Numbered from the stretch's first letter, positions 827 to 58,772 are shown. The stretch is DNA of 64,000 nt from a virus (IMGVR_UViG_3300031998_000011:96001-160000), one strand, 5' to 3'. The notes: generated by a model from the sequence alone, not told the origin. Translations and numbers: made by a program.

Positions 827-855
827 GGGCGCTCCGATGGGGCGCCTTTAATTTT
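827..855 (+). terminator. Probable intrinsic terminator
   Basis: GGGCGCTCC-gat-GGGGCGCCT hairpin followed by TTAATTTT just after the GT8 stop. Confidence 0.6.
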
Positions 856-873
856 GTACTTGAAGTTGAAAAT
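851..873. repeat. 23-bp palindromic site, copy 1
   Basis: ATTTTGTACTTGAAGTTGAAAAT; 1 mismatch to consensus ATTTTSAACTTSAAGTTSAAAAT; intergenic. Confidence 0.85.
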
Positions 874-915
874 CATACAACCTGAATGTACAACATGGTT
901 GTATGATATGTTGTA
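873..915. promoter_or_regulatory. Interleaved inverted repeats (four TACAAC half-sites), operator-like
   Basis: TCATACAACC (873-882)/GGTTGTATGA (897-906) and TACAACAT (889-896)/ATGTTGTA (908-915). Confidence 0.5.
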
Positions 916-1009
916 TAAACGGCCGGTCTGATTGGGTAATCATGATGTTACGCCGCGCCTATGGTAACGATACTACTCTCTTATTTGGTTGCAACCCAGG
1001 AGATTCACC

Positions 1010-1432: not shown

Positions 1433-1444
1433 GGAGATAGGTAT

Positions 1445-1732: not shown

Positions 1733-1743
1733 GGAGCACCCAC

Positions 1744-4700
1744 ATGGCTACTCAGACTTACATGACCGCCAAGCTCAACCTCGCTGACGGCACTATCGTT
1801 TATCCGCAGATTTCCCTCGACAACATCGTTCGCTCCATCAGTGATCCCACGCTGGTTACTGTGGCGGAGCTTTCCGGTGGCAAGGTGCCCATTGCACAGC
1901 TGCCGACGACGATTTCCGTTACCGATTCCAATACCACGGTTCCTACCACCGGCGCCGTTTACGGTGCGCTGAACACCAAGCAGAACACTCTTGTCGAAGG
2001 AGACAACATCATTCACATTGTCAATGGGAGCACCATCATGGCAGACATCACCAATCTCGACGTGGCCGGCATCGACCAGACAGCCACCAACGGCGTACAT
2101 CTGGTCCTGGATGGCAACACTGTCAGCGCTGCGGCAGACCTGGCGGCCAACGACAGCGCCGGTGTTATTGCTGGTGCCTCCGATGGCGTGAAGCTGGTGG
2201 ACGGCGTTGCGCAGCTCGATGTTGCTACAGCACCTGTGGCAGACGGTGTTACGGCTGGTCTGGTCAAGACGGTTGGCGATGGCCTGCTTGTTGAAGGCGG
2301 CACTGCATGCATTGACGACGCCACCGTGGAAACCACGCTGCAGGACGTCCGCATCGACGATGGCAGCACTGTTACGCCGGTGAGCGACCAGGTCGTCACG
2401 CCAGGCAATCTTCGTGGTGCACTCAGTGTTGGTCAGGCGGTGGATGTGAGCTGTAAGGCTTTGCTTTGCGGTTGGTCAGAAATTCAATATGCTGATGATG
2501 ACACTTGGTATTCCACAACGACTGAAGCGTTCACCAAGGATTCTACAAAATTCCTTGGTACTTTCAAACTGCGAACAACTGGTTCAAATCAATATTATCG
2601 TTTTGGGTTCGGTACTTCCGGAAGCACGGGCAGTCTGTTTCCGAAAAGAGCAGCGGGACTTAAATATCTGTTTATTTGCGATGTACGAAATAGCTCGACG
2701 ACTACAGCATGGGGCGCTTATAGCTTAATGCAAGCAGACGGTAGCCCTTATCCCAATAACAATTCCGTGAATGGTATTCCCTATACGGTTCCAGTAGCAA
2801 ATTGTTCACCTAATGGCAGTTTTGTGCGTATGGCTATCTTAGTTAGTGGTGACGCTGGCTATATGAACTTAGCCATTCAAGGAGGTGGCGTAAGCGCTAC
2901 ATTTGAAATTGAGATCAAGAATTGGCGTCAGTACGAAGTCACCGCGCTCACTGATGACGCCATTGCTTACATTGCCCAGCTGCCGGATCCCGACGCCTTC
3001 TTCCGCAGCACTGACGCCTACAGCATCCGCGACAAGTACCTGATCAAGCAGGACATGGTCAGCCCCTTCATCCCGATCATCAACATGTCCAACAGCGACC
3101 TGACGATTGCTGCCGGCCTGGCCTACAAGATGCAGATCACTGACAGCAACACGCACAAGTTCACCGTCGATACCATCCCGACCAACGGCTATGGCTGGGA
3201 CAGCCATCTGCAGCTCTTCGTCAATGACGTGGCCACGGTTACATTCCAGAACCCGCTCGTGCTCATGAACCCGCTGACTCCGAACTCCGGTCACAATATC
3301 ACGATCAAGTGGCGTGCAGGTCAGGCGCTGGCGTATGTGGAAGACACAGACGTCGGCTATGTTGTCACGGTTACGGCGGGCACCGAGAACGGCAGCCTGT
3401 ATTACGGCCTGACGAATGATGTCGGTGGCTATGTCGTGTTTGCGGATAGCGTCGATGACCAGACGATCAGCCTGATCGAAGGAACCACGATTTCGCGCAA
3501 CGTCAATATCATCGGCAACGGCATGGAAACGACGGTCATCGACGGGGATATCTATTCCCAGGGTAATTCTGTCGGCATCACGAATCTGACGCTTACCGGT
3601 TCCTCAATCGGTCTTTGCAGAGTTTGGAATGATTATACAGGAGACATCGTTTCCATCTCCAACTGCAAGATCGAGAACTGTGTGGGAAGCTACCCCGGTC
3701 CTAATGGTTATCTTGGTTATTACAACGTCGGCCTTGACAACTGTATCGTGGTCGGCTGTGGTGGTGAGAGCCACGGTACGCTGTTTGCGCTCCTGGACAA
3801 GGATGTTACGAATACGATCTTTACGGATTGCAGTATGTCCGGGGGAACGCAGTGGCAGGTAGGTCGTACTGTTTACTGCTTCGGCAAAAAAGGCTGCAGC
3901 ATAAGCGGTTGCACCTTCAGTAATAACAAGGCTTATTATGGTGATGTTAGCGTATATAACAGCGCGACATGGACGATTGAGAACTGCCTGTTTGAGCCAC
4001 TGTCTGTTTCCTCATGGAATTGCGGCGTTGTGGTGCAGGCCGGTGCTGATCAGGCTGGTGCCGGTTATGCTACGATCACGGGTTGTACGTTTAACAATAA
4101 TATCAGCTGCTGGCATTATACCAGCGGTACAGATATTGACTACAGAGGCCGCGTCGATTTTACCGGTGTCAATATCCTGAACGGGACAGCAGGCGGTTCT
4201 GGCCTGTACTACTGGCTTGACGGTTCCACCATCACCAGCCCGGAGCGCACTGGTGCTTTCGATTTCGCCGATTGCCAGTTCAATCTGGGTCCGTCTGGCA
4301 ATGCGGTTTTCGAGGGCATCACGTTCAAGAACAAGAATGCAACACATGCCCCGATGATACTCTCTCTAAATACTCCTACTACACAGGAGTTCATCGACTG
4401 CGTGTTCACCGGCAACACATCCAGTGTTCACGGTGGTGGCATTATGGTTAGCGGCTGGGGGAACACCGTTATTTTGAGCGGTACTACCTTCAGCGATAAC
4501 CAGGCTGCTCAGGGCAGTGCTGTCCGTTTCGAGAACGGCCCGCTGCTTTCTGTAACTGACTGTCTCTGCTCCAACTGCACACTCGGCGGTACATTCCGTC
4601 TGCTGCGCACGGCAAAAGGAGAGTTTACCAGGCTGACTATTACGGACACTACCAGATATACTGCTTTCAGTCTGTACGGCGGATGCAATATCACGTTTGA

Positions 4701-6438
4701 TTCCTGCAGCATGCCTTATGGTGATGTGTCTGGTACAGACGGCTATACACTTGCTGGTGATGCTCTCCAGAATTATCAGCTGCTGACCTGGAAGAACAGC
4801 AACAGTGTGATTTCGATTGTGGTCTACGGCTCCAATAGATTTGTCGCCGGATCTACTATCACAACGACATACGCCTGCTATACAAGAGATGATGCGCCGT
4901 TTGGCAACTTCTCCATTGGCACCCTCTCGGAGGATGGCACAGTCTACACAGTCGGCGGCACGGCCACTTTCGTATATCCCGGCGGCTCCACGGTGCTCTC
5001 CGGTATGGGTACACATGTGAATGCTGATGGTACCAACGACTTCAGTGCTCCGGTTCATGTCACGACTTCTGCAACAGAGGGTACCGGCTCCCTGCCGTAT
5101 GCTCTGGCGAATGCCTCCAAATGGATCCTGGTTGATCGTGGTGTTACAGGCACTTTTGCCTCGACTGCGGTTGCTCTCAACGGCAAGCAGATCGTGGATG
5201 CTTCCGGCATGTTGATTGCTGGTGGTACGTTCACGCTTGCGGGTGGTACCGTTATTGAAGCGACAAGGACAATTCAGGGCAGCACTGTTACTCTGCCTGA
5301 CACGGGTGCCGTCATTGTCGGTATGCGTGACAGCGTCCTGGACCTCAGCGAGGGTTGCCTGCAGCCGACAGCGAATACAGGTAAGATGCACAAGATCCAA
5401 AACATCACACTCAGTGGTGGCACGACAGGAAATGGTGGCCGTACTTCAATGGGTATCAATGTGCAGGGCTGCACAGCGTCCTTTGAATATGTCACGTTCT
5501 CCGACATGTACACAACAGACGCCAACTGGTCCTTCATCGTTCGTGGAACAGTTAATAGTACACTGATACTCAACAACTGTATTTTCAAGAATAATTACAA
5601 CGGCACAAGTATAGCTTCTGCTATCCAGGTTCAAAATGCTGCTACGATTTCCAACTGCACATTTGCAAAGCACAATACCAATAGCTACAGGGCTATCTAC
5701 TGCGGTGGCGGACTGACCAAGATGATCAGTCTAAACACGTTTGCGAGTGGTGTGGTTGTCGTGGAAGGCGGCACATTCTCGCTGGAAAATAGTTCTACGC
5801 TTGATCTGAGTTCTAACTGGGGCAACGGCGGTAAGTTCGCTTATACCACGACTGTAGCGGGCTCTAACATCATCTTCGGCAGTCCTGTCACCATCACGTA
5901 TAATCTTACATCCGGAATGCAGACACAGACTACGAAGTCGATGGTCGTCAGCGGTGTTACGGATGGTCGCATCATCTACTCCTGGGGCGCCATTGAAGTG
6001 GACCGTCTTTTCCCGACTTATGTCAGCGGCGGTACAGTGACGTTCAGCGGTACTAAGGTGTCTGCAACTTATCATCCGCTGGTACCTCTGAGTGGTTCTA
6101 CGGTGAACAACTGCGCATTTGTGTCCGATACAGCTATGTTCCTGGCGGCTGGATACAACGGACAGACTAGTTATCTGACGATAAGCGGCCTGGTAAGCTT
6201 TAACAAGCCGTTGATGGCCGGATCTTCAACCAGTTACGGTAATGTCACGATGCTGGATGGCTCTACGATATCGTTCTCCGGCGTATCTGGGGCGTACCTC
6301 TTCGACAGTGGTGCCGGTACGTTCTCAATCGGTAAGAACTGCAGGTGCATCAACGCGGCGGGCACAAGTGTGCTGCTGAACAACGGTGTCGCCACTACGG
6401 CTTACACGAAGATCGCTTACGATGGGACACTGTCGTAA
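1744..6438 (+). CDS. Large tail fibre/spike with right-handed beta-helix repeats
   Basis: 1564 aa, Thr/Gly/Ser-rich; FxxN-type repeats (SGCTFSNNKA, TGCTFNNN, FTGNTS..GGGI, FSDNQA, NCIFKNN); repeated VT..(G/T)..GSL.Y(G/A)L.N motif. Confidence 0.7.
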   Translation: MATQTYMTAKLNLADGTIVYPQISLDNIVRSISDPTLVTVAELSGGKVPIAQLPTTISVTDSNTTVPTTGAVYGALNTKQNTLVEGDNIIHIVNGSTIMADITNLDVAGIDQTATNGVHLVLDGNTVSAAADLAANDSAGVIAGASDGVKLVDGVAQLDVATAPVADGVTAGLVKTVGDGLLVEGGTACIDDATVETTLQDVRIDDGSTVTPVSDQVVTPGNLRGALSVGQAVDVSCKALLCGWSEIQYADDDTWYSTTTEAFTKDSTKFLGTFKLRTTGSNQYYRFGFGTSGSTGSLFPKRAAGLKYLFICDVRNSSTTTAWGAYSLMQADGSPYPNNNSVNGIPYTVPVANCSPNGSFVRMAILVSGDAGYMNLAIQGGGVSATFEIEIKNWRQYEVTALTDDAIAYIAQLPDPDAFFRSTDAYSIRDKYLIKQDMVSPFIPIINMSNSDLTIAAGLAYKMQITDSNTHKFTVDTIPTNGYGWDSHLQLFVNDVATVTFQNPLVLMNPLTPNSGHNITIKWRAGQALAYVEDTDVGYVVTVTAGTENGSLYYGLTNDVGGYVVFADSVDDQTISLIEGTTISRNVNIIGNGMETTVIDGDIYSQGNSVGITNLTLTGSSIGLCRVWNDYTGDIVSISNCKIENCVGSYPGPNGYLGYYNVGLDNCIVVGCGGESHGTLFALLDKDVTNTIFTDCSMSGGTQWQVGRTVYCFGKKGCSISGCTFSNNKAYYGDVSVYNSATWTIENCLFEPLSVSSWNCGVVVQAGADQAGAGYATITGCTFNNNISCWHYTSGTDIDYRGRVDFTGVNILNGTAGGSGLYYWLDGSTITSPERTGAFDFADCQFNLGPSGNAVFEGITFKNKNATHAPMILSLNTPTTQEFIDCVFTGNTSSVHGGGIMVSGWGNTVILSGTTFSDNQAAQGSAVRFENGPLLSVTDCLCSNCTLGGTFRLLRTAKGEFTRLTITDTTRYTAFSLYGGCNITFDSCSMPYGDVSGTDGYTLAGDALQNYQLLTWKNSNSVISIVVYGSNRFVAGSTITTTYACYTRDDAPFGNFSIGTLSEDGTVYTVGGTATFVYPGGSTVLSGMGTHVNADGTNDFSAPVHVTTSATEGTGSLPYALANASKWILVDRGVTGTFASTAVALNGKQIVDASGMLIAGGTFTLAGGTVIEATRTIQGSTVTLPDTGAVIVGMRDSVLDLSEGCLQPTANTGKMHKIQNITLSGGTTGNGGRTSMGINVQGCTASFEYVTFSDMYTTDANWSFIVRGTVNSTLILNNCIFKNNYNGTSIASAIQVQNAATISNCTFAKHNTNSYRAIYCGGGLTKMISLNTFASGVVVVEGGTFSLENSSTLDLSSNWGNGGKFAYTTTVAGSNIIFGSPVTITYNLTSGMQTQTTKSMVVSGVTDGRIIYSWGAIEVDRLFPTYVSGGTVTFSGTKVSATYHPLVPLSGSTVNNCAFVSDTAMFLAAGYNGQTSYLTISGLVSFNKPLMAGSSTSYGNVTMLDGSTISFSGVSGAYLFDSGAGTFSIGKNCRCINAAGTSVLLNNGVATTAYTKIAYDGTLS

Positions 6439-6490: not shown

Positions 6491-6537
6491 ATGCCCATAT
6501 AGTAAGACAACCCCACCAACCAGAAAGGAATAACATC

Positions 6538-14777: not shown

Positions 14778-14800
14778 ATTTTCAACCTGAAGTTCAAAAT
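14778..14800. repeat. 23-bp palindromic site, copy 2
   Basis: ATTTTCAACCTGAAGTTCAAAAT; 1 mismatch; intergenic. Confidence 0.88.
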
Positions 14801-16685: not shown

Positions 16686-16736
16686 TTTTCTTTTAGTTTG
16701 TACTTAATCCGTCCATGTGCGGGGGCATAATAGCCT
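16686..16736 (+). promoter_or_regulatory. Terminator tail plus promoter P3
   Basis: TTTTCTTTTA...CTTAAT-N17-CATAAT-AGCCT. Confidence 0.65.
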
Positions 16737-17436: not shown

Positions 17437-17489
17437 TTTTCTTTTACAATCTACCTGAAATCACCCATGTGTTGCGGGCATAATCATAT
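17437..17489 (+). promoter_or_regulatory. Terminator tail plus promoter P5
   Basis: TTTTCTTTTA...CTGAAA-N18-CATAAT-CATAT. Confidence 0.6.
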
Positions 17490-20200: not shown

Positions 20201-20277
20201 GCGAGGGCTCCGAAAGGGGCTCTCGCTTTTCTTTTAGAATGGCCTTAATTTGAGCTGGTTTTCGGGCATACTAAGAT
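20201..20277 (+). promoter_or_regulatory. Terminator plus promoter P6
   Basis: GCGAGGGCTCC-GAAA-GGGGCTCTCGC-TTTTCTTTTA, then CTTAAT-N17-CATACT-AAGAT. Confidence 0.7.
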
Positions 20278-20812: not shown

Positions 20813-20892
20813 GACTGGTAGCCTTCCGGGGCGACCAGTCTTTTCTTTTAGAATGTACCTAATGCAGGCGCGTTTTGAGGGCATAATCTACT
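20813..20892 (+). promoter_or_regulatory. Terminator plus promoter P7
   Basis: GACTGGT...ACCAGTC-TTTTCTTTTA, then CCTAAT-N18-CATAAT-CTACT. Confidence 0.7.
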
Positions 20893-21700: not shown

Positions 21701-21712
21701 AAGGAAAACAAA

Positions 21713-29291: not shown

Positions 29292-29326
29292 GAAGTCCCT
29301 GGCCGGAAGGCCGGGGGCTTCTTTTT
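29292..29326. terminator. Terminator between convergent genes
   Basis: GAAGTCCCTGGCC-ggaa-GGCCGGGGGCTTC followed by TTTTT. Confidence 0.75.
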
Positions 29327-30528: not shown

Positions 30529-30563
30529 CGCTGGCACTTCTATAAGAATATAGGAGAACTCCA

Positions 30564-38122: not shown

Positions 38123-38848
38123 ATGCCAGATACCACAGGCACATTTAATAATCTGCTGAGAGCCAAGCAGAAGTTCATTTCGAACGTTCTCGACACCGAG
38201 AAACCTGCGAAGATCTACCGTTTGGACGACTATAAGCAGATCAGGACTGCGCTGTTTGATAACGTGAAGAACGCTGTCAAGCAGCGCTTCCCCCTGTACA
38301 ATGACCGGGTAACTCTGGCAATCGAAGATGTTGATTACGATGATCCAGACGAGATCGACATCCCGAAGCAGAAGCAGTGCATCCTGGAGGGTAAATCCTG
38401 TGACCGCAGGTTGCGCGGTCGCTGGGTCCTCCGGGATGCAGCTACTGACAAGGTGCTCAGCCAGACCAAGCGTATGACTCTGATGCGCGTGCCTTACATG
38501 ACTGACCGTGGGACTTTCATTCGCAACGGTCATGAGTACGCTTTCACGAACATTATGCGTCTGGAACCTGGTGTATACACAAAGAAGCGCGATGACGAAG
38601 TGTCTGCACAGTTCAATATTCAGAAGGGAACGGGTGCTGGCTTCAATATGTTCCTTACACCGGAGACAGGCATCTTCAAGATCAAACGAGGAACCACCAG
38701 TTGTCCTGCTTACACAGTATTCAAGGACCTCGGTGTGACTGACGATCAGATGCAACAGGCCTGGGGTCAGGAGCTGTTCGAGAAGAACAAACGAGCAGGC
38801 ACAGACGAGAAAGCTCGTCAGGCTGCTAACAAGATATACAACATGTGA
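38123..38848 (+). CDS. rpoB: RNA polymerase beta subunit, N-terminal fragment
   Basis: VPYMTDRGTFIRNGHEYAFTNIMRLEPGVY aligns with bacterial [30 protein letters not shown]. Confidence 0.88.
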   Translation: MPDTTGTFNNLLRAKQKFISNVLDTEKPAKIYRLDDYKQIRTALFDNVKNAVKQRFPLYNDRVTLAIEDVDYDDPDEIDIPKQKQCILEGKSCDRRLRGRWVLRDAATDKVLSQTKRMTLMRVPYMTDRGTFIRNGHEYAFTNIMRLEPGVYTKKRDDEVSAQFNIQKGTGAGFNMFLTPETGIFKIKRGTTSCPAYTVFKDLGVTDDQMQQAWGQELFEKNKRAGTDEKARQAANKIYNM

Positions 38849-43589: not shown

Positions 43590-43612
43590 ATTTTCAACTT
43601 CAAGTTGAAAAT
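43590..43612. repeat. 23-bp palindromic site, copy 4
   Basis: ATTTTCAACTTCAAGTTGAAAAT; perfect 11-1-11 palindrome; intergenic. Confidence 0.9.
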
Positions 43613-43615: not shown

Positions 43616-43646
43616 GAGGACTCCACAACGGGGTCCTCTTTCTTTT
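43616..43646 (+). terminator. Intrinsic terminator
   Basis: GAGGACTCC-acaac-GGGGTCCTC followed by TTTCTTTT. Confidence 0.8.
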
Positions 43647-43689
43647 ATAGTAGAGTGATACGCGCAAGATACATAAGAGGAGACCAATT

Positions 43690-46600
43690 ATGCCCGAAGC
43701 ACCTGTTTCACCGATACAAGCTGCCGGTACTGCGATGACCAATATCCGGCTCACACCGGATAAACCGACCAAGACTGCAGCTGACTGGGTACGCGATATG
43801 CGCATGTCGCCCAGTGTGAACAAGACCACGACAGGTGTGGAGACTGCTTCTGTCACAGGCGATTTGATGCTGGCTACCTCGAAGAAGCTCCTCGGTATAT
43901 CCAGAGGTGAACGGGAGCCAGATCCGAAAGACTCTCTGGAGTTCCAGCGGTTCTACGGCCCAGCCGAATATTTTGCAGAGCATGTGCTCCGTGATGGTAA
44001 CAAGCTGGGGCGCAATATCCTGTGGAAAGCAACAAACGTTGGCAACCTTGATTTCATGCCGGTGAATGCGCTGGATAAGCACATCAGCGACGTTTACTAC
44101 GACAGCAAGCTCGCCCAGATGATAGACGGTTCTTCTCCGCTGGAAACAGTGGATGCATCCTACAAGACCACCCGTATCGGTGAAGGCGGCGTCGGAGACC
44201 TCGATTCAGCTCCTGACGAGATGCGCACGGTGCAGCCGTCCTTTCTTGGTTTTGTAGATCCGGTCCGGTCGCCTGAAAGTTTTCGCGTCGGGTTGGATGT
44301 CTATATGACTAAGAATGTTATGAAGGGATCCGACGGGAAATTGTATCAGAAATTCATCAATGCGCACACTGGCAAGGAAGAGCTGGTCGATTCCGAGACC
44401 ATTGCCAAGTCCGTAGTGACGACGCCTGAGATGATGAACTCCAAGACCAAGTCGGTGTTCGCTATGGGAGGCCCGACTGGTGTTCGCATCGTACCGCGCA
44501 AGGACGTGGACTATTACCTGCCCAGAGCTGATGAAGCCTACAGCATGTCCTCCAACATGGTGACAATGCCGTCTGCAGTCATCGGCATGCGACTCCTGAT
44601 GGGTTGCCTGCACCCGGATACAAATGTGCTGATTGCAGACGACCACAATATGATTCACATGATGCCGGCCAAGTATCTGAACGCGCACAAGCAGCGCATC
44701 CCAGGCATGACCAGCGAGTTCAAGACCGCCTGCTACGATATGCAGAACACAGTCGCCAAGCTGACACAGAAGCCGCGCTGGTTCAAGAAAATTGTCACGA
44801 AATCCGGCCGAGTCCTCGTCACCAGTTACGACCATCGCTGGCCTGTTCTCATCAACGGTAAGATGACACTGGTCCAAGCGCGTGACCTGAAGCCGGGCGA
44901 TACGATTCTGCGTTCTGCGTTCCGCGATGTTCCGAACCGACGCACGTTCCTGAACAAGCATCTTATCACGAAGGACGTCGCTTTCTTCCTGGGGCTTCTC
45001 TGCAGATCCGCCAAGAGCAACAAGCGCGGGTCTGTCACGTTCCGTTACAAGTGTGGTGCTGATGTCAGAATCCGTGATGCCATTCATTATGTCTGGGGTG
45101 ACTGCAAGCCGGTGATCCGACAGTACAAGAAGGATGGGTTCTACTGCATGACTGTCCGTTGTGAAGCCATATGGCAGTATGTCGAAGACCACATCGGTTT
45201 CACCGACAGCACCCGCGATATCCCGACTGAGATTCTCAGCACATATGCCGAGATCGTTGCTGAGTTCCTGAATGGATATACCTGTGATGATACCATGATG
45301 GGCACTGACAGCAACGAGGATATTTGGATTCTGTTCATTCCGAACATGAAGGTTCGCGATGAATTGTCCTTCCTGTTCGCCCGTATCGGTACTGACACGT
45401 TGTACCGCGATGCTCCTGGTGCAGATCCCAATCATGTCGAGATTGCGCTGAAGATCAGTGATACCTCCAGGCTCTGGAATGACATGTACAAAGACACCAT
45501 CAAGTACGTCTGGGAAGGTCCGCGCTGTCCTATCATGGTTGATATTGACATAAACGACAACATGTATGCAGTCGCCAACGGCATCGTGACGCACAATTCC
45601 AAGTACCCGCTGCAGGCTATCTCACTGGACAATCGTGAGGCTCCTCTGGTCCGTACACTGGACGAAGCATCCGGAAAAGACATGTCTTCACTGGTCGGCA
45701 AGTTCCTGGGAGCCAGGTTTGCACCACAGGGTGGTGTTGTCACGGCTGTCCGTAAGGACCGCATCGACGTGATTTGGGACGACGGCAGTAAGGGTGCTGT
45801 TCCTCTGTATGTGAACTTCCCGATGAACGCCAAGGGTTTCATCAACAATACACCGGTCATCAAGGCCGGCATGCCTTTCAAGAAGGGACAGATTCTTGCC
45901 AGCTCCAACTACACGGACAAGGACGGCACGGCGGCTCTTGGTATCAACTTGAAGTCCGGTTGGATCAGCTGGAAGGGTGGCACTTACGAAGACGCTGTTG
46001 TCATTAGCGAGGAAGCCGCCAAGAAGTTGACCAGCACGACCATGTACAACACATCGGTCGATCTGGATAAGACCATCAGTCTGGGCAAGAAGAACTACAT
46101 CACCTGGAAACCTGCCGAGTACACAAAGGAGCAGATGGAACAGCTGGACGACAACGGCGTTGTCCGTCCAGGCACTGTGCTACATAAGGGCGACCCGATG
46201 ATTCTGGCCGTCCGTACCAGCGAGCCAAGTCCAGGTACGATGGGTAAGCGCATCCTGACAGACCTGTCCGAGACGTGGGATCATGACCATGAAGGAATCG
46301 TGACAGATGTGGTCAGAACACGCAAGGGTGTCAAGGTTTTCACGACAGTGACCGCGCCGGCAGAAATCGGTGATAAGATCGCCGGTCTGCACGGCAACAA
46401 AGGCACGATTGCCCAGATTCTGCCGAAAGAACAGATGCCGCAGACCAAGCAGGGTACACCGCTTGATATCTGTTTCAGTCCTCTTGGAGTCACGAGCCGC
46501 AACAACACGGCGCAGCTTTATGAGGCGCTGCTTGGCAAGGTAGCAAAGAAGACCGGCCAGATACAGATCATGCCGGCGTTCTTCGAAGGCGACCTGCATG

Positions 46601-48414
46601 ATTACGTGGAAGGCAAACTGAAAGAAGCCCATGTTCACGCAGACGATGACCTGGTCGATCCTGAGACCGGCCGCGAGATTCCAGGTGTTCTCACAGGATT
46701 CACCTATGTTCATAAGCTGAAGCACCTGGCTGAGTCCAAGTTGTCAGCCCGTGGCACTGGTGAATACTCTGCAGACGAAACACCCAGTGGAGGCGGCCGC
46801 ACTGGCAGCAAACGCTTCGGTTCTCTTGAAACATCGGCACTCGTTGGACATCAGGCATTTGAGACGCTCAAGGACGCCAAGATCCTGCGCGGTCAATCCA
46901 ACGCAGACTTCTGGCGGTCCATCAGAACAGGCTCCATTCCTGTGATGCCCGGTGAGCCGCTGGTTCATAAGAAGTTCTTTGCACATCTCATCGGCTCTGG
47001 TGTGAACGTCCGCAAGACCCAGAAGGGCATCAGCACGTTTGCGCTTTCCAATGACGATGTGAATGAACTGACCGGACCAAGAGAGCTCCGCTCCAGAGAC
47101 ACGTATGAAGCCAAGAACTTCCGTCCAATCGACGGCGGTCTGTTCGGTCAGGACGTGTTCGGCATCAACGGCGACAAGTGGGGCTACATCAAACTCGATG
47201 AGCCGGTTCCGAACCCTGTCATGGAAGAACCACTTGCCAGACTTCTCCGTATGCCGGACAAGACTTTCATCGGTGTTGCGACCGGCAAGATCGAGTACAA
47301 TGGCATCCGTGGCCCGCTGCAGCTCCGTGATGCACTTGCGAACATTGACCTGAATAAGGAAGCCAAGAACGCGCTGATCGAACTGAAGAACGCTCCGACC
47401 AGTAAGAAGGATGCAATGCTGAAGCGCTACGTGGCAATAGAGCGCATGCGCCGTGCAGGTGTGAGTCCTGACAAGTACATGCTGGACAAAATCCCGGTGC
47501 TGCCTCCGCAGTTCCGTCCAATCACGTCGCACAACGGTCTGACGATGGTGGCTGACAGCAACTATCTGTATGCTCAGCTTCTGGATGCCAGAGATGATGT
47601 GAGAGATGCGCGGGATCTACCGGAAGAGTTCCAGCAGCAGGCTCGTGAACGTCTGTACAAGGACTGGAAGGAATTGACCGGTCTGTACGAACCAGAAAAC
47701 AAAGCCTTCAAGGCTAAGCATATACAAGGACTCCTGAAGTGGGCGCTGGGTGACAGTCCGAAGTTTGGTGCAGCGCAGAGAAAGGTTATCAGCTCTACTG
47801 TAGACACCGTGGGCCGTGGCGTCATTACACCGAATCCCAGACTGAAACTCAATGAAGTCGGTATTCCGGAAGAGATGGCTTTCGGCATATTCTCGCCGCT
47901 GATCGAGCGCGGTCTGGTGCAGCGTGGCTACACTCCAGTGGAAGCCATAAAGCAAGTTCATGACAAGTCTCGGCAGGCTAAGGAACTGCTGACGGAAGTC
48001 ATGAAGACACACCCGGTTATTATGAATCGTGCACCGACGCTGCATAAGCTGAGTGTCATGGCGTTCAACCCGGTACTTGTGACAGGACACGCGCTTCAGA
48101 TCAATCCGAGTATCGTTGTCCCGTTCGGGGCCGACTTCGACGGTGACACCGTGAACATCCATGCGCCAATGTCTGACAATGCCCGTGAAGAGGCCAGACG
48201 TAAGATGTTCCCGGAGCGGAACCTGATTGCCATGAAGAACCGTCAGATAGCGTACAAACCTGAGAAGGAATACCTGCAGGGTCTGTACACTGCGAGCCAT
48301 ATTAACGATAAGTCCGGTGTACGCCCCATCTTAGTTAAGGATCTGAAGGAGGCGCTTGAGGCTTATCGCAAGGGACTCATCAACATTGACGATCCCATTG
48401 ACATTAAGAGCTAA
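43690..48414 (+). CDS. rpoBC: RNA polymerase fusion: beta middle/C-terminus + beta' N-terminus with catalytic site; contains an intein
   Basis: beta: GEGGV..DEMRTVQPSFLGFVDPVRSPE, YEDA, GDKIAGLHGNKG, SPLGVTSRNN, KLKHL, KRFGSLE; beta': GGLFG..FG, PVLPPQFRP, NRAPTLH, FGADFDGD. Confidence 0.95.
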   Translation: MPEAPVSPIQAAGTAMTNIRLTPDKPTKTAADWVRDMRMSPSVNKTTTGVETASVTGDLMLATSKKLLGISRGEREPDPKDSLEFQRFYGPAEYFAEHVLRDGNKLGRNILWKATNVGNLDFMPVNALDKHISDVYYDSKLAQMIDGSSPLETVDASYKTTRIGEGGVGDLDSAPDEMRTVQPSFLGFVDPVRSPESFRVGLDVYMTKNVMKGSDGKLYQKFINAHTGKEELVDSETIAKSVVTTPEMMNSKTKSVFAMGGPTGVRIVPRKDVDYYLPRADEAYSMSSNMVTMPSAVIGMRLLMGCLHPDTNVLIADDHNMIHMMPAKYLNAHKQRIPGMTSEFKTACYDMQNTVAKLTQKPRWFKKIVTKSGRVLVTSYDHRWPVLINGKMTLVQARDLKPGDTILRSAFRDVPNRRTFLNKHLITKDVAFFLGLLCRSAKSNKRGSVTFRYKCGADVRIRDAIHYVWGDCKPVIRQYKKDGFYCMTVRCEAIWQYVEDHIGFTDSTRDIPTEILSTYAEIVAEFLNGYTCDDTMMGTDSNEDIWILFIPNMKVRDELSFLFARIGTDTLYRDAPGADPNHVEIALKISDTSRLWNDMYKDTIKYVWEGPRCPIMVDIDINDNMYAVANGIVTHNSKYPLQAISLDNREAPLVRTLDEASGKDMSSLVGKFLGARFAPQGGVVTAVRKDRIDVIWDDGSKGAVPLYVNFPMNAKGFINNTPVIKAGMPFKKGQILASSNYTDKDGTAALGINLKSGWISWKGGTYEDAVVISEEAAKKLTSTTMYNTSVDLDKTISLGKKNYITWKPAEYTKEQMEQLDDNGVVRPGTVLHKGDPMILAVRTSEPSPGTMGKRILTDLSETWDHDHEGIVTDVVRTRKGVKVFTTVTAPAEIGDKIAGLHGNKGTIAQILPKEQMPQTKQGTPLDICFSPLGVTSRNNTAQLYEALLGKVAKKTGQIQIMPAFFEGDLHDYVEGKLKEAHVHADDDLVDPETGREIPGVLTGFTYVHKLKHLAESKLSARGTGEYSADETPSGGGRTGSKRFGSLETSALVGHQAFETLKDAKILRGQSNADFWRSIRTGSIPVMPGEPLVHKKFFAHLIGSGVNVRKTQKGISTFALSNDDVNELTGPRELRSRDTYEAKNFRPIDGGLFGQDVFGINGDKWGYIKLDEPVPNPVMEEPLARLLRMPDKTFIGVATGKIEYNGIRGPLQLRDALANIDLNKEAKNALIELKNAPTSKKDAMLKRYVAIERMRRAGVSPDKYMLDKIPVLPPQFRPITSHNGLTMVADSNYLYAQLLDARDDVRDARDLPEEFQQQARERLYKDWKELTGLYEPENKAFKAKHIQGLLKWALGDSPKFGAAQRKVISSTVDTVGRGVITPNPRLKLNEVGIPEEMAFGIFSPLIERGLVQRGYTPVEAIKQVHDKSRQAKELLTEVMKTHPVIMNRAPTLHKLSVMAFNPVLVTGHALQINPSIVVPFGADFDGDTVNIHAPMSDNAREEARRKMFPERNLIAMKNRQIAYKPEKEYLQGLYTASHINDKSGVRPILVKDLKEALEAYRKGLINIDDPIDIKS
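44605..45597 (+). mobile_element. Intein (331 aa) with LAGLIDADG-type endonuclease domain
   Basis: Starts CLHPDT, block B TSYDHRW, ends ANGIVTHN followed by Ser; removal restores RLLMG-SKYPLQA (bacterial RALMGANMQRQA); FFLGLL, EFLNGY, LSFLFARIG blocks. Confidence 0.92.
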
Positions 48415-50535: not shown

Positions 50536-52383
50536 ATGCGGACTACGCTTGGCAGAGAACTGATCCGGTCGAAGTTGCCGGAGAAGTACAAAGGTTGGGC
50601 TGATAAGGTTCTCGACAAGAAGAACCTGACAGAACTCATGACCAAGATGGCCCTGGATGACCCTGACGGATACGTCGATGTCCTCCAGGACCTGAACAAT
50701 CTGGGTCAGACCGTCGTGTCCCTGTATGGCCGGAATACGGCTCTTCCGTTTGAAGACATCAAGATTTCAAAAGGTGTCAAGAGCCTGAACAAGCAGCTTC
50801 ATGAGGTCATCGACAAGGTTCTGAATGATGACAATCTGACTGAGAAACAGAAGGAAGCCAAGATTACTGATCTCTGCTATAAGTACACCAAGAAGGTCGA
50901 GGACGCTGTATTCGCAGATAACGACCGGCGCTCAACTGCTTTCGCTTCACAGATCAACTCTGGTTCCCGTGGCAATAAGACGCAGCTCATGCAGATGCAG
51001 TTCGGCAACATGGGTATGAAAGATGCCCTGAACCGTGACATGCCCTACATGATGATCGACCCCTATGCAATCGGCGCATCGCCGATGGGCTATTGGGTAT
51101 CTGCTTCCTCCGGTCGCAAAGGTTACTACGACGTCCAGATGGCAACCGGCCAGTCCGGTTATCTTGGCAAGCGCGTGACTGCTGCAACACACGACACTGT
51201 CATCAGTGAAGATGATTGTGGCACCACAGATACAGGCATCCCGTTCCCTGCGAACAGTGAGAAGAATATCGGTGCAGTCCTGCTTCGTCCTTGGCATAAG
51301 TATCCGGCAGGCACAGTCGTGACTGGCAAGATGGTTGGCGAGGCTGATGAAGGCGAGGAAATGGTTCTTCGCAGCCCAATCACCTGCAAGAGCCGACACG
51401 GAATCTGTGCCAAGTGCAGCGGTCTCGGCGAGAACGGTAAGTTCCCTGGCATCGGCGAGTTCGTTCCCATGAACGCAGCTCGTTCCTTTGTTGAAGTCAT
51501 GACGCAGAGCTCAGTCGGTTCCAAGCACAAGGGCGGTGTCGGCGGCCGCAAGGTTGTCGATCCAGAAGGTGAAGATCAGCCCACCGGCTTCCGTGCAGCT
51601 GAGCGCATGTTCACTGTTCCGAAGAACTTCCCAGGCGGTGCTGTCCTGACACCTGTTGATGGTACCGTCACTAATATCCAGGCAGCGCCGCAGGGCGGCA
51701 GCTACATCACAGTTGGCGGTTCCACTGTCTATGCCTCGCCGGCTCGCACCATCAAGGTCAAGGTCGGTGACAAAGTCTATGCTGGGGACGTGCTGACCAA
51801 CGGTGTTCCAAACCCTGCCGACATTGTCGGTTACAAGGGACTCGGAGAAGGTCGCCGGTATTTCACCAACAAATTGAACTCAGTTCTCAAGGATCTCGGC
51901 TGGGGTACGGACCGCCGCAACATAGAGTCGTTCTCCAGAGCGTTCTTGAACAAGGTGGAGATTACGGACCCGGACGGTTTCGGCAACTATCTCCCAGGGG
52001 ACATTGTGGACTACAGTGCAGTGGCCGCAGACTGGGAGCCGCGTGAGAACTCTATTACCACCAAGGCTGACAAGGCACTGAACATGTACCTGGAAAAGCC
52101 TGTATTGTACTACAGCGTTGGAACACGAATTACGCCCGAAGTGGCGAACACGCTGAAGAAGTACAAATTCGACGACGTGACGGTCTCCGATAAGGAACCG
52201 CCATTCTCGGCGAAGTTCCTGCGGCCGACAGAGGCGCTGCAGCACAGCCAGTACTGGTTGCCCCGTATGGCGGGCGAACGGTTGCGCGACAGTCTCTTCG
52301 ACGCAGCACGTCAGGGAATCACTGATCCCTATGACTCACCAAGTTATGTAGACAAAATAGTGGCACAGCCATTCAAACCATAA
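50536..52383 (+). CDS. rpoC: RNA polymerase beta' subunit, C-terminal fragment
   Basis: TTLGR, SGSRG, bridge helix GRKG..D....TGQSGYLGKR, EDDCGT, RSPITC...GICAKC, trigger loop TQ....SKHKGG. Confidence 0.93.
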   Translation: MRTTLGRELIRSKLPEKYKGWADKVLDKKNLTELMTKMALDDPDGYVDVLQDLNNLGQTVVSLYGRNTALPFEDIKISKGVKSLNKQLHEVIDKVLNDDNLTEKQKEAKITDLCYKYTKKVEDAVFADNDRRSTAFASQINSGSRGNKTQLMQMQFGNMGMKDALNRDMPYMMIDPYAIGASPMGYWVSASSGRKGYYDVQMATGQSGYLGKRVTAATHDTVISEDDCGTTDTGIPFPANSEKNIGAVLLRPWHKYPAGTVVTGKMVGEADEGEEMVLRSPITCKSRHGICAKCSGLGENGKFPGIGEFVPMNAARSFVEVMTQSSVGSKHKGGVGGRKVVDPEGEDQPTGFRAAERMFTVPKNFPGGAVLTPVDGTVTNIQAAPQGGSYITVGGSTVYASPARTIKVKVGDKVYAGDVLTNGVPNPADIVGYKGLGEGRRYFTNKLNSVLKDLGWGTDRRNIESFSRAFLNKVEITDPDGFGNYLPGDIVDYSAVAADWEPRENSITTKADKALNMYLEKPVLYYSVGTRITPEVANTLKKYKFDDVTVSDKEPPFSAKFLRPTEALQHSQYWLPRMAGERLRDSLFDAARQGITDPYDSPSYVDKIVAQPFKP

Positions 52384-54676: not shown

Positions 54677-55585
54677 ATGAGCCAGGAATCCGACGTCGAG
54701 ATTCTGGAAGGGCCGGTCGTTCCGGCAGAAAAGACTCCCTCCAACACAAGGGAGTTTTTTCTTAGACCTCCGGATTGGCGATACCAGGCAGCCGTGAAGT
54801 ATCTGAACGACGAGCTGCATGGTATTACGCCAACTATCCCGACGGATATCCATGTCCAGTACGCCGTCCGTGTGCTGCGGGCCTTCAACCAGCCTGCTAC
54901 ACGTATCTACATGGATGTGCTCTGTCCGGATGCCGTGGAGACGATCACGCTGGGTGTCATCATGAAGCACTCGGCGATTACAGCGGACATAGAAAGCTGC
55001 ATCATCAGTGGCAGTACGACGGAAGAGCTGGAACTGGACGGGTTCTACATCCGGCCGGTTGTGTTCGACCTGTATGCCAAGTTGTTCTGCGATCTGTCGG
55101 GGATCACGGCTGTTCATGCCTGGATCCACGACTTTCTTTTAGAGCCCGAACGCCACAGTGAGAATACGACGCTCCTGAAAGCAAGACTGATGGCGTACTA
55201 CGGCGGCAAGAACATGGGCGGCACAGCGGCTGTCACAGGCTTTATCGACAACGAGACCCAGCAGCTCATGAAACAGATCACGGCGACGGAACAGCAGAAG
55301 CGCATCTTCGAGTACGTCGTGAGGGCTACCGATATGCGAGCCGAGGACTATGTCGCGGTCATGGAAGGAGCCGTTAAGAGTATGACGGAAAAAGACTTTC
55401 AGGAGAAGATGCGCGACCGCGAGGAGGCCGGATCCAGTTCGCTTGAGGAACTTGCCGGTCATCTTGAGGAGGGCATCAGAGCATACAGCCAGAAAGAACT
55501 GGAGGCGATCAACTCCTCCGGTCTTGACTTTGTCAACCAATACACTCCCGTAATCATCCGAAAGGAACAGGACGATGGAAAATAA
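54677..55585 (+). CDS. Hypothetical protein (head module)
   Basis: AGGAG RBS. Confidence 0.75.
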   Translation: MSQESDVEILEGPVVPAEKTPSNTREFFLRPPDWRYQAAVKYLNDELHGITPTIPTDIHVQYAVRVLRAFNQPATRIYMDVLCPDAVETITLGVIMKHSAITADIESCIISGSTTEELELDGFYIRPVVFDLYAKLFCDLSGITAVHAWIHDFLLEPERHSENTTLLKARLMAYYGGKNMGGTAAVTGFIDNETQQLMKQITATEQQKRIFEYVVRATDMRAEDYVAVMEGAVKSMTEKDFQEKMRDREEAGSSSLEELAGHLEEGIRAYSQKELEAINSSGLDFVNQYTPVIIRKEQDDGK

Positions 55586-57302
55586 GATATCTTCTTCCGA
55601 TGAGCGCAAGCTGACGAACGCCATCGAAAGTGCTGCCATTCTGGCAAGCAATGACGCATCCCGTGACAGGAACCAGCTCCTTGCGGATGAACTCAAGAAA
55701 GAGGGCGTGGATTCCCGTTTCGCAAAAGTGGCGTCCTGTGCTTTCAACAAGCGTGTCACAGTGCTGACTTTCAAGAAGACGGCAGATGAGCACAAGGCTG
55801 ATCCTTTCGAACTGACGGATGGGGACAAGGTCCTGGAACTGATGACTGGCGAAGCGCTGGAAAAGGCTGCGGCTCTCACTGCCGCCGATTTCGAGATCAC
55901 TGTTACCGGCGCTCCGATGCAGAAGGCAGCCTCTGCCGAGGCTCCTGCCCGTGCCTGCTTTGAGGACACCGTGGACTACGACCGGCTGGTCAAGCACGTC
56001 GAGAACGTCATGACCAAGAACGCGGCCGCCATCTACGAGGTGCTCCAGAAGCAGCGCGATGTCGAAGCCGTTGCTGATTCTCTGAAGACGGAACTGGCTG
56101 ATCACTTCATCAAGGATGCCAGCGCTTCCTATGCGTTCTCCAGTCTGATCAATCACTACGGCGACCGCTTCCAGAACGCCATCCAGGATAAGCTGCCTGA
56201 ACATACGGACTGGACAAAGACTGCGGCAGACGCAATTTTGTTCAATGATCCAGTCTTCGACAAGGCCGCCAAGATGATCGAGATGCACGAAGCCAACGAG
56301 AATCTGAAGGCGGTGCTGGACAAGTACGGCGAAGGGCTCACAGAGTTCTGCAAGTCGGCGGCCATGCTGGGAGATTTCGTCCAGAAGGCCGAGTCTGGCT
56401 TTGTCAAAATGGCGGCTCCACGTATGGCTGCGGAACTTGCTGGTGAGCTGGGTCTCACACCGGCCGCTCTGGGGAACTATGCAGTTGGCGCCATCGACAA
56501 CATGGTCAACGGTGTCGCGAATACAGCCGGTAACGCTTTCTCCAATGCCTATGCTCTGTACCAAGCTGGCAATGCGGCGCACATGGCTCCGAACGAAATC
56601 CTCGATGCAGACTTCCTGACGAAGGATCGCTACAGAGATCGTCTTCTTGGCTGGTCCGACATGACAGCTGATCCTCAGTTCGCCATGTATCCTGCCGAGC
56701 AGGTGTTCCTCGCCACACAGAAAGCGATGGACATGGATACCACACTGGAACGTCCGGACAAGCGCGAGGTGCTTCGCTCTTACGTGGCCCAGCTCCTGGC
56801 TCAGAATAATCGGCTCTCCACGGCGGATATCGCGGCTCTGGCTCAGACTCTTCGCGGTCTTACTAGTGCTGATGAACATGGTGCTCAGCAGATCGCTGTC
56901 AAGTCTGTTAAGGGCATGGATGAAACAAAAGCACCGGAGGCACCGGTTATCAAGGCTGTTGTTGAGGGTCGTCGCGAAGTCAAAGGTGAAGAAAGAGCCG
57001 GTCAGGTTCTGGACACCATCAAAGAGATGCGTGAAGACTACGAGAAAAAGACTGACAAGGCTCGTGAGTCGGAAGGCAACAATGATCGTACACAGCGCGA
57101 ACGTGCGAGAGCTCTGGCTGATGCACAGAATGCTCGAAACCAGTTCCTGACGGATACCATGCATATTCAGATCAGAGCCAACCCACAGGGACAGATTACA
57201 TATTCACCGGGTCGTAACCAGCAACCTCTTACACAGGCTGATATCGACAATATCCTGGCGGCTGCCGAACGTGCCAATCTTGTTCCGGCTCTTCCGGCGT
57301 AA
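55575..57302 (+). CDS. Helical head/core protein with multiple K-x-A sites
   Basis: LEKAAA, MQKAAS, WTKTAA, FCKSAA, FVKMAA. Confidence 0.72.
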   Translation: MENKISSSDERKLTNAIESAAILASNDASRDRNQLLADELKKEGVDSRFAKVASCAFNKRVTVLTFKKTADEHKADPFELTDGDKVLELMTGEALEKAAALTAADFEITVTGAPMQKAASAEAPARACFEDTVDYDRLVKHVENVMTKNAAAIYEVLQKQRDVEAVADSLKTELADHFIKDASASYAFSSLINHYGDRFQNAIQDKLPEHTDWTKTAADAILFNDPVFDKAAKMIEMHEANENLKAVLDKYGEGLTEFCKSAAMLGDFVQKAESGFVKMAAPRMAAELAGELGLTPAALGNYAVGAIDNMVNGVANTAGNAFSNAYALYQAGNAAHMAPNEILDADFLTKDRYRDRLLGWSDMTADPQFAMYPAEQVFLATQKAMDMDTTLERPDKREVLRSYVAQLLAQNNRLSTADIAALAQTLRGLTSADEHGAQQIAVKSVKGMDETKAPEAPVIKAVVEGRREVKGEERAGQVLDTIKEMREDYEKKTDKARESEGNNDRTQRERARALADAQNARNQFLTDTMHIQIRANPQGQITYSPGRNQQPLTQADIDNILAAAERANLVPALPA

Positions 57303-57314
57303 GGAGACTGTCCT

Positions 57315-58772
57315 ATGATGAAGAAAAGTTTCCTCCCTGAGTCCTTCAACTTCGATGTGCCTCCTGTTGAGATCATTGGCGTTGGCAGCAAAGGTCTGGA
57401 CAAGACTGCGATGGTGAAACGTGCCAGTGCTTTCGATGATGTCATCGAGAAGCTGGAGAAGAAAGCCAATCGCACCTACCTCCATGTTATTACGACTGGA
57501 GCCTATGAAACGTACGGCGCCAATCTGAACTCTGACGGATGGAACGGAGAGTCGTTTGAACTCAAGTTCCCGCATCCTGAGAACATGGCGAAGAAAGCGA
57601 TGGTTCTGGACGGCGGCCTTTCCAAATATCATGATATGACCTATATGAAGGATGGTGCTGTGTACCAGGAACACCAGACCAAGACAGCTGGTGTTGATCC
57701 GTCAGGTGAGATAATCGCCGCCAAGTACAACCCCATGATGAAACGTGGTGAGCTCATCATTGCAGTCGATACCGAGAAATGGGCTTCCAGGCTTCAGAAG
57801 AAAGCCAAAGGTGAGAACATCTACCTGAGCATTGGGGCGTCTGTGCCGTACGACGTGTGCAACATCTGCGGAAGAATTGCAAAGACAGCTTCCGAACACT
57901 GCAGTCACTTCAAGCATCATCGCGGCGAAGTCTATGATTGTGGTGAGCGTGCCTGTGTTATGAACGACCATCCGGACTTCTACGACATTTCTGGTGTGAA
58001 CGTGCCGGCCGACAAGATTGCGTTCGTGCTCCAGGAAGTTGGTCACGGCGACAAGCTGACAAAGACCAGCTCCCTGCACGACATCATGCAGCAGGCGACG
58101 CAGGCAGTCGGTGTCCGTCCGCCAATGGTACTCACGAAGGCCGCCATGATTCTGGGCAAGCTGGCTCGTATGGAGAAGCAGATCGAAGGTATTGTCGAAG
58201 GTGACAAGAAGCCGGACAAAGAGGCATTTGACCATGACGACGATGCCGAAAAAGATTTTGAACTTGAAGTTCAAAATTATCCTGCCGATGAGGTGATCGA
58301 CGGTGCAAACCGCAAAGGCATCCTTCTGACTCCGGGCATGCTGTTCAGACTGCTCGGTAAGGAATGCTCTGATCCAGACAATGCTCTAAAGGATTGTGAC
58401 GACGAGAGTTGTGGCGATCTGTCCTGCATGATGCGTGAACTGGAGGATGACGAGGATGTCAATGACGAGCTGCTGGACGGTTCTTTCGACCAGCATCCGC
58501 CTGTGGATCTGAACCTCGACAGCATTCTGGAGAAGTTCATTCCGATGTTCGGGATGACGGACCCTGCTGTCAATACACGGGTTATCCGCATCACAATCGT
58601 CGGCGCTCCGAAACACGGTACTGTAGACAAGAAGGCGTCTCTGAATAAGTTCGCACAGGAAGCCCTGCGCCGGACATATGCCAGATACCTCATCAGTTTT
58701 GCTGCTCAGAACAACGAAAGTACCTGTATGAACGCCCTCATGAAAATAGCTGGAATCGGGAAACGCGGCTGA
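57315..58772 (+). CDS. Prohead (capsid maturation) protease with Zn-ribbon insertion
   Basis: N.NSD, VYQEH, LSIGASV..DVCNICG...HCSH, FYDISGVNVPAD; upstream of scaffold and capsid genes. Confidence 0.75.
   Translation: MMKKSFLPESFNFDVPPVEIIGVGSKGLDKTAMVKRASAFDDVIEKLEKKANRTYLHVITTGAYETYGANLNSDGWNGESFELKFPHPENMAKKAMVLDGGLSKYHDMTYMKDGAVYQEHQTKTAGVDPSGEIIAAKYNPMMKRGELIIAVDTEKWASRLQKKAKGENIYLSIGASVPYDVCNICGRIAKTASEHCSHFKHHRGEVYDCGERACVMNDHPDFYDISGVNVPADKIAFVLQEVGHGDKLTKTSSLHDIMQQATQAVGVRPPMVLTKAAMILGKLARMEKQIEGIVEGDKKPDKEAFDHDDDAEKDFELEVQNYPADEVIDGANRKGILLTPGMLFRLLGKECSDPDNALKDCDDESCGDLSCMMRELEDDEDVNDELLDGSFDQHPPVDLNLDSILEKFIPMFGMTDPAVNTRVIRITIVGAPKHGTVDKKASLNKFAQEALRRTYARYLISFAAQNNESTCMNALMKIAGIGKRG
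58255..58277. repeat. 23-bp palindromic site, copy 5 (intragenic)
   Basis: ATTTTGAACTTGAAGTTCAAAAT; perfect 11-1-11 palindrome inside the protease gene. Confidence 0.88.

Follow-up and report, generated by a model that had tools for sequence, protein, structure and literature searches.

Dispersed 23-bp palindromes in a 179-kb phage genome: possible loading sites for a protein that covers the chromosome

The inverted repeats bound by SopB are dispersed over the linear plasmid-prophage N15. Four natural repeats of this kind, IR1-IR4, have been described (PMC7205306). In RK2, a dimer of KorB loads on OB sites and then slides to act at a distance (PMC11790492). The element reported here, a 23-bp palindrome that recurs around a phage genome, resembles these sites in several respects. 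It was found in a stretch of 64,000 nucleotides (the window) that corresponds to bases 96001-160000 of a 179,396-bp virus record from IMG/VR, that of an uncultivated phage (genome G000); positions are those of the window unless given as genome positions.

With the sites of KorB, parS and Noc, the palindromes share that they are few, dispersed and of odd length, with T- and A-tracts in the outer arms (the OB core is TTTAGCSGCTAAA), and that some are far from promoters. As in N15, palindromic sites, predicted here to bind a protein, are scattered rather than clustered in a phage genome. There are also clear differences. While parS and OB measure 13-16 bp, the phage site spans 23 bp, with its half-site cores 7 bp apart, and, in contrast to the ParB, KorB and Noc systems, no ParB_N/CTPase domain is detectable in the phage. 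The carrier is not a plasmid, as in the case of KorB, but a 179-kb phage of the lytic type, and an even genome-wide spacing has not been described for OB. N15, in turn, lives as a plasmid and has four sites with a binder of the ParB family, whereas in the present case the sites number 14-15, and neither a ParB nor any indication of maintenance as a plasmid is seen. Membership in a ParB-type family is not supported, given the lack of ParB_N and the non-conservation of the small helix-turn-helix (HTH) protein discussed below. The closest working analogy would be that of loading sites for a DNA-acting protein of limited range, as in KorB, ParB, Noc and the N15 repeats. The reach of ParB-family clamps is comparable in magnitude to the gaps found here, with their mean of 13 kb and their maximum of roughly 20 kb. 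According to the reading preferred in this work, which is held with slightly less than even confidence, the palindromes would be high-affinity sites for one phage-specified, probably dimeric, genome-covering protein.

A discrete family of palindromic sites

The palindromes form a discrete family of sites with dyad symmetry, on which purifying selection acts at the DNA level. In the window, the degenerate 23-mer ATTTTSAACTTSAAGTTSAAAAT matches exactly five times, and never in 100 dinucleotide shuffles; the five copies (at 851, 14778, 30137, 43590 and 58255, with 1, 1, 3, 0 and 0 mismatches, respectively) and the gaps between them are those reported in a preliminary description of the window. 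The complete record holds 14 copies, 12 with three mismatches or fewer and two with four, and the next best sequence has six. When the whole genome was scored with a symmetrised position weight matrix (PWM), the 14 sites reached 29.9-41.4 bits and the next best sequence 3.2 bits, under the best of the shuffled genomes. This gap indicates that the family is all-or-none, and it bears out the earlier statement that few strong copies lie in between. The motif carries about 31-34 bits of information, versus the 14.5 bits required for specifying the sites.

Four related genomes allow the conservation of the sites to be followed. The closest, G001, is 89% identical over 80% of G000, and the codon-position pattern of the substitutions between both was used to check gene frames. 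More distant are G002, G006, which like G000 and G001 is complete or nearly so (as is G002), and G003, a 52-kb fragment; the identity of their polymerase to that of G000 is 81% for G002, 64% for G003 and 60% for G006, compared with 58% for a further genome, G005. Average protein identity among G000, G002 and G006 is about 44-58%, with G000 and G002 at about 58%. The nearest cultured relatives are Salmonella phage Arash and the Vibrio phages D69, D181 and D148, with a polymerase identity of about 30%; BLAST at the DNA level gave no match between G000 and cultured phages. In public assemblies, a protein search revealed a large clade similar to G002, whose contigs reach 179 kb. The copies and the features that accompany them are listed below, with substitutions between G000 and G001 given for the first, second and third codon positions.

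Genome positions 17225, 20461, 37901, 55221, 65280, 83638, 91949, 96851, 110778, 126137, 139590, 154255, 161374 and 177739: the palindrome copies
851-873 (genome 96851): copy 1, intergenic, 36 nt past the upstream stop codon, PWM score 37.7 bits
827-847, plus strand: GC-rich terminator-like hairpin of 9 pairs, 7 of them G-C, then TTAATTTT
14778-14800 (genome 110778): copy 2, intergenic, 88 nt past one gene and 89 nt before the next
30137-30159 (genome 126137): copy 3, inside the coding sequence (CDS) 29950-30528, encoding KNELQVEN
29950-30528, plus strand: gene for the 192-aa host protein of copy 3, immediately upstream of the portal gene, substitutions 2/1/25
43590-43612 (genome 139590): copy 4, perfect, 2 nt past a stop codon and 78 nt upstream of the polymerase gene
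43618-43636, plus strand: conserved terminator-like hairpin with a T-run, starting 5 nt past copy 4
58255-58277 (genome 154255): copy 5, perfect, inside CDS 57315-58772, encoding DFELEVQN
57315-58772, plus strand: gene for the 485-aa structural protein that hosts copy 5, substitutions 25/14/151, similar to Arash gp222 (tblastn, Arash 146806-147684)

Seven of the copies in G000 are intergenic, six fall within real CDSs, and one (83638) lies over a stop codon, 1 nt before the next ATG. Non-coding copies are enriched with respect to the 10.8% of the genome that is non-coding (binomial p of about 3e-4, calculated by hand), but this is far from a rule, and in G006 about nine of the 14 copies lie in long open frames. 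The substitution patterns against G001 confirm that copies 1, 2 and 4 are intergenic and copies 3 and 5 are inside CDSs; the run of A/T-ending codons at the in-gene copies is also present, and the sites disregard both module and coding boundaries, as had been proposed.

All 14 copies are found letter for letter in G001, with no change in 14 x 23 (322) bases, while the 150-bp flanks are 90% identical; the chance of such unchanged motif bases is 0.9^322, about 2e-15 (calculated by hand). Copy 1 is identical between flanks of about 85% identity, with the T-run of the 827-847 hairpin merging into its left arm, copy 2 between flanks of about 81% identity, and copy 4 despite a non-homologous upstream flank. 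The hairpin next to copy 4 keeps its stem in G001 and changes its loop.

Between lineages the consensus of the site changes in a concerted manner, and the positions of the sites are deeply conserved. The exact motif of G000 is absent from relatives more distant than G001, and three such lineages carry their own 23-bp versions:

G002: consensus ATTTTCYACYYSRGGTRGAAAAT, 15 copies
G003: consensus ATTTTCTACTC-N-GAGTAGAAAAT, 7 copies in the fragment
G006: consensus ATTTT[AC]TAC-TYSRA-GTA[TG]AAAAT, 14 copies

PWM scans again gave discrete families, with 15 sites of at least 27.9 bits in G002 (next best 8.5) and 14 sites of at least 27.9 bits in G006 (next best 4.8); the copy number is 14-15 in G000, G001, G002 and G006. 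Nine of the 14 copies of G000 have positional counterparts in G002, among them copy 2 (at 59073), and the module around copy 4 recurs in G002 (82946), G003 (6016) and G006 (149602). The in-gene copies 126137, 154255, 161374 and 177739 occupy the same codon positions in G000, G002 and G006; thus, copy 3 corresponds to 67383 in G002 and 21455 in G006. At the in-gene sites the codons follow the DNA consensus of each genome, both synonymously (CTT CAA GTT to CTC CAG GTG) and with changes in the protein, as in copy 5 (DFELEVQN) and its equivalents in G002 (101648, DFLLQVEN) and G006 (63274, DFILKVEN). These patterns, together with the 322 unchanged bases, support the earlier claim that selection acts on the DNA, and they speak against selection on the protein or on an RNA. 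The palindrome illustrates clearly how a signal in DNA can take precedence over the choice of codons and amino acids. In the predicted structure of the 192-aa protein (mean pLDDT 81.5), an N-terminal zinc-ribbon-like domain (CxxC...HxxxC) is joined by a linker to a helical domain, and residues 63-70, encoded by copy 3, overlap the sole low-confidence interdomain linker (residues 64-72, pLDDT<50). Its predicted fold had no match in the PDB. Neither Arash nor G005 carries the palindrome family, in a scan that did not extend to the Vibrio phages D69, D181 and D148.

With regard to the anatomy of the site, positions T5, A8 and C9 and their mirror images G15, T16 and A19 are invariant in G000, G002 and G003, and T-tract and A-tract flanks surround them. 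The degenerate positions are mirrored as well (Y at 7, 10 and 11; R at 17, 14 and 13). Pairs of the G.U type in G002 number 16 on one strand and 13 on the other, which amounts to no strand bias, and in 11 of the 14 copies of G000 positions 6 and 18 hold the same base and are unpairable. Half-sites alone occur at chance frequency in the genome, and TTSAA is not avoided (362 found, 377 expected). The mirrored positions, the lack of wobble bias and the chance frequency of half-sites point to a symmetric protein that would recognise the full duplex site. The arms of the motif are A/T-rich, its T-tract pairs with its A-tract, and terminator-like hairpins stand beside the motif and not within it. 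Three candidate roles were rejected on these features: an intrinsic terminator, for which the motif lacks a GC-rich stem with a T-run; an RNA or DNA hairpin, including an N4-type promoter, given the unpaired positions 6/18 and the lack of G.U strand bias; and a -10-like element formed by the half-site, since half-sites are not enriched.

The copies are spread much more evenly than expected by chance in G000, as anticipated by the preliminary description, and the same is true of G002 and G006. What did not survive is the ruler of 14.4 kb proposed from the window. Regularity at this distance is confined to the window, and over the whole genome a Rayleigh scan of 5-30 kb gave a best R of 0.44 (p=0.98); further copies had been predicted near -13 kb and 72-73 kb, and the actual outside neighbours lie at window positions -4051, -12362, 65374 and 81739. 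The gaps in G000 are 3.2, 17.4, 17.3, 10.1, 18.4, 8.3, 4.9, 13.9, 15.4, 13.5, 14.7, 7.1, 16.4 and 18.7 kb. Against a null that preserves eight non-coding and six coding sites, both their coefficient of variation (CV, 0.39; p=3e-5) and the largest gap (18.7 kb; p=1e-5) are significant. The CV is 0.35 in G006 (p=1e-4), where the smallest gap is 6.4 kb (p=1e-4), and 0.45 in G002 (p of about 1e-3). The 42 gaps pooled from G000, G002 and G006 range from 3.2 to 21.6 kb, with a median of 13.4 kb. On average there is about one site per 13 kb, and neighbours are at most about 19-22 kb apart and seldom closer than 5 kb.

Putative loading sites and the search for a binder

If the palindromes are the sites of a genome-covering protein, one of them would be kept about every 13 kb round the whole genome, never beyond roughly 20 kb from the next, and would be placed in intergenic DNA where there is room and otherwise in tolerant stretches of genes, such as linkers. 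The protein would load or nucleate at the site and act over a limited distance along the DNA, possibly by sliding or spreading, like ParB from parS or KorB from its operators, or by anchoring loops. In this way the whole chromosome might be covered for its organisation or condensation, for self-marking, or for long-range control of transcription. The even layout fits a protein that loads at a specific site and has a limited reach, by which the entire phage chromosome would be covered, and the architectural role suggested in the preliminary description agrees with the data better than a regulon or a promoter.

A broader proposal is possible but doubtful, namely that this clade of phages of about 178 kb maintains some 14 landmark sites, genome-spanning and constrained in their spacing, for a protein of an unrecognised family. 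Selection would then operate on the chromosomal location of the sites, and would be strong enough to write them into coding linkers and to hold them there while the proteins diverge to about 40% identity. Landmarks of this sort would amount to a system for organising or marking the chromosome that has no described counterpart in lytic phages; searches of the literature for something equivalent found none.

A candidate for the binder had been put forward in the preliminary description:

29325-29606, minus strand: 93-aa MerR_1/HTH_17 protein, the sole small sequence-specific DNA-binding protein recognised by Pfam besides the sigma factors

The gene is real. Its product was rejected as the binder: its recognition helix shows only two conservative changes between G000 and G002, even though their motifs differ, and it has no orthologue in G003 and G006. 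According to their phyletic pattern, 31 other proteins track the palindrome, being present in G002 and G006 but not in the palindrome-free G005 and Arash, and none of the 31 has a recognisable DNA-binding domain. The 153-aa gene product encoded next to the large terminase had no usable match in a protein atlas.

Several observations count against the reading of the palindromes as loading sites. A six-frame search of the whole genome for ParB_N (PF02195; E<=1) gave no match, while the control matched in 11 of 14 genomes. Among 149 small and medium-sized proteins, Pfam recognised a single HTH besides the sigma factors, that of the MerR/HTH_17 protein, which is missing from the palindrome-bearing G003 and G006. 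On the gene strand of G000 the right arm of the motif is slightly better kept than the left. The spacing tests are not fully independent, because the site positions in the relatives are partly orthologous. Finally, seven or eight of the 14 sites are non-coding in a genome with 11% non-coding DNA, which may point to a role in transcription.

Should the loading or anchoring role be true, these sites would reveal by what means the entire chromosome of a large virulent phage is organised, marked or controlled, a question that is largely open beyond the nucleus-forming jumbo phages. The system is tractable, as it offers a 23-bp all-or-none site with three or four natural specificity variants in related genomes, and its conserved in-gene copies allow selection at the DNA level to be separated from selection at the protein level. 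A DNA signal that overrides codons is also useful when related viromes are annotated.

Alternative readings

An explanation that we consider unlikely, although with some arguments on its side, is that the palindrome is a promoter for the phage's own virion-borne RNA polymerase, comparable to the early promoters, AT-rich and phage-specific, that phiKZ/AR9-type phages use, or to the 23-bp promoters of the T7 type, the even spacing then coming from the lengths of co-directional transcription units. T7-type promoters are typically all-or-none too, with about 33 bits and concerted divergence between relatives, and the palindromes resemble them in the three traits. Like the promoters of phiKZ, AR9 and T7, the palindrome is a phage-specific, AT-rich, highly conserved and over-represented motif that differs between relatives and carries excess information. 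The promoter reading is also favoured by the non-coding enrichment just mentioned, by the terminator hairpins just upstream of copies 91949 and 96851, and by five sites that have an ATG with a Shine-Dalgarno sequence 36-116 nt downstream. Moreover, the phage encodes a multisubunit RNA polymerase, and in the virion of Arash the beta subunit of the polymerase is the most abundant protein, with a sigma factor present too (PMC10585845). Multisubunit-polymerase phages each have a findable, phage-specific AT-rich early-promoter motif (PMC7598289; AR9 consensus, PMC5312081), a precedent that makes the promoter a natural first guess. Nevertheless, the early promoters of AR9 type lack symmetry, precede genes and direct transcription from a fixed start 6 nt downstream (PMC5312081), whereas the palindrome is symmetric without separate use of its half-sites, lies often within genes (in two cases only about 70-140 nt past the start codon of the host gene), frequently has a terminator hairpin after it, and shares the genome with more convincing promoter candidates. 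Read along the gene strand, its asymmetric forms, C-G-C and G-C-G, are found both ways round, and nothing is conserved at the start site expected downstream. In G000/G001, G002 and G003, a terminator-like hairpin begins 5-10 nt past the copy before the polymerase gene, with a separate TATAGTAG beyond it, the order of the module being stop codon, palindrome, hairpin with T-run, TATAGTAG and downstream gene (that of the polymerase in G000); in G006 the promoter element comes 6 nt after the palindrome, with no hairpin. Other copies run directly into hairpins too. In addition, phiKZ/AR9-type phages have two polymerase sets (virion and non-virion), and G000 has one: profile searches with PF00562 and PF00623 gave one beta and one beta' homologue. 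A search with PF00940 (T7-like polymerase) had no match, its control likewise matching nowhere. Two large orphan proteins yielded one weak match to a PHROG family without assigned function and nothing polymerase-like, and the orphan at 1744-6438 had nothing significant in the PDB. From one polymerase set and the two sigma70-type proteins encoded in G000, promoters of the -35/-10 kind are predicted, and such motifs exist in two further classes:

43646-43653, plus strand: TATAGTAG, a -10-like motif copy 37 nt upstream of the polymerase ATG
6498-6506, 29619-29627, 43646-43653 and 62137-62145, and genome positions 14274, 15980, 17891, 63645 and 92596: TATAGTA[AG] copies
16686-16731, 17437-17484, 20227-20272 and 20841-20887, and genome position 75661: TTTTCTTTTA...GGGCATAAT class

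The TATAGTA[AG] family comprises 9-10 copies, nearly all intergenic and mostly 27-60 nt before a start codon or tRNA array. They frequently come right after a terminator hairpin, are conserved in G001, G002 and G003 (with TATACTAAG in G006), and are absent from the DNA-metabolism region at 18-63 kb; the family probably provides late or structural genes with promoters that consist of a -10 element only. The other class, third after the palindrome and TATAGTA[AG], consists of a T-rich TTTTCTTTTA, about 30 nt and then GGGCATAAT (or GGGCATACT), upstream of small open reading frames (ORFs). Its copies stand about 30-185 nt before the next called start codon, a looser one adjoins the minus-strand sigma gene, and it may be an early promoter class. 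The hexamers of both classes are -10-like. Judging from these motifs, the promoter role seems to be taken by the TATAGTA[AG] and GGGCATAAT classes and not by the palindrome, which also warns that a single over-represented AT-rich motif in a polymerase-encoding phage is not automatically an early promoter.

It is rather unlikely that a site-specific nuclease or nickase of the phage, or an initiator of replication or recombination, acts on the copies, which would then be programmed nicks or breaks like those of T5-like phages, or multiple initiation points distributed along the genome. The nicks of T5-like and some Pseudomonas phages do occupy a handful of defined positions along a virulent phage genome, and a nuclease or initiator would be in agreement with the very high specificity, the all-or-none occurrence and the even coverage. 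The odd-length palindrome with its central C-Y-Y-S-R-R-G core also resembles the targets of type II restriction enzymes. Known nick sites are, however, asymmetric and on one strand, whereas cutting at a symmetric site such as the palindrome would affect both strands. At one copy, a mosaic breakpoint between G000 and G001 falls precisely on the site, but there is no overall association with such breakpoints (p=0.77); no nuclease is linked to the sites, the contig ends of fragmentary relatives do not coincide with them, and TTSAA, as counted above, is not avoided. An operator of a global repressor, or a roadblock or insulator at the boundaries of transcription units in a genome that is co-directional almost throughout, is quite unlikely. 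Operators are palindromic as well, many non-coding copies abut terminator-like hairpins on either side, and one copy of G006 ends 6 nt before TATACTAAG, where a bound protein would occupy the upstream region of the element. Against this, merely one or two copies overlap a promoter-like motif, half of them are deep inside genes at long-conserved positions, operators normally show a gradient of site strength, and a repressor does not predict even spacing. Finally, it is highly improbable that the in-gene copies represent a shared peptide signal, DFxLxV[EQ]N, such as one for cleavage or targeting of virion proteins, or that the motif acts at the RNA level, as a hairpin or a site of processing. 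Those four in-gene copies that are deeply conserved do share a reading frame and belong to structural or head-module (pre-portal) genes, but seven copies lie in non-coding DNA, the alternation of E and Q depends on the free C/G position, and from one lineage to another the encoded residues shift with the DNA consensus. For RNA, the unpairable positions 6/18 and the balanced G.U counts are adverse, so that the non-coding copies and the pairing counts largely refute both forms of this idea.

Further features of the genome

The record repeats 150 bp at its two ends, so that the assembly, 179,246 bp long, is circular or permuted. The phage has about 200 ORFs; its genes lie almost without exception on the plus strand, and RtcB, ligases and tRNAs are also encoded. 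The single multisubunit polymerase, of the virion type, is split over 38123-38848, 43690-48414 and 50536-52383. Other landmarks are:

30564-32438: portal
Genome 21704-23563, minus strand: large terminase

The long minus-strand ORFs (up to 1094 aa) at 58706-61990, 62081-63346 and 29815-30570 are shadow frames: substitutions against G001 hit their first codon position, so they are not genes, and the packed plus-strand ORFs are real. The minus-strand region at genome 21229-23656 (L055:4229-6656), with the terminase (619 aa, 30% identical to Arash gp1) and the 153-aa gene, shows substitutions by codon position of 8/0/53, that is, at third positions.

The fused beta/beta' polymerase gene at 43690-48414 holds an intein-like insert at residues ~306-636, with Cys at its start and His-Asn at its end, followed by Ser. 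The homologous ORFs reach 2074 aa in G002, 1965 aa in G003 and, as an open frame, 2478 aa in G006, and their greater length suggests further inteins or homing elements. In G005 the polymerase gene is split. This palindrome-free genome (L030-L039) has 11 copies (e.g., at 2265, 9204, 159813 and 191791) of a repeat unit of more than 100 bp, a hairpin followed by AAGAAAGTGAATTGCTGG and more, which is a different kind of element from the palindrome.

The Pfam scan of the 149 small and medium-sized proteins left the majority without a family and detected two TFIIS-type zinc ribbons, ThyX, a patatin, a ThiF/E1-like protein and a Tad2-like (anti-Thoeris) domain. A 301-aa protein (genome 81445-82350; L058:4445-5350) is 98.7% identical between G000 and G002, and because the average protein identity of the two is about 58%, a recent exchange between their lineages is suggested; in G006, a palindrome copy begins 6 nt past the orthologue of its gene. 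Six tRNA genes (Ser, Tyr, Met, Met, Thr and Pro) lie in an ORF-poor stretch at genome 15995-16623 and 17730-18410, and the palindrome copy at 17225 falls between these two groups.

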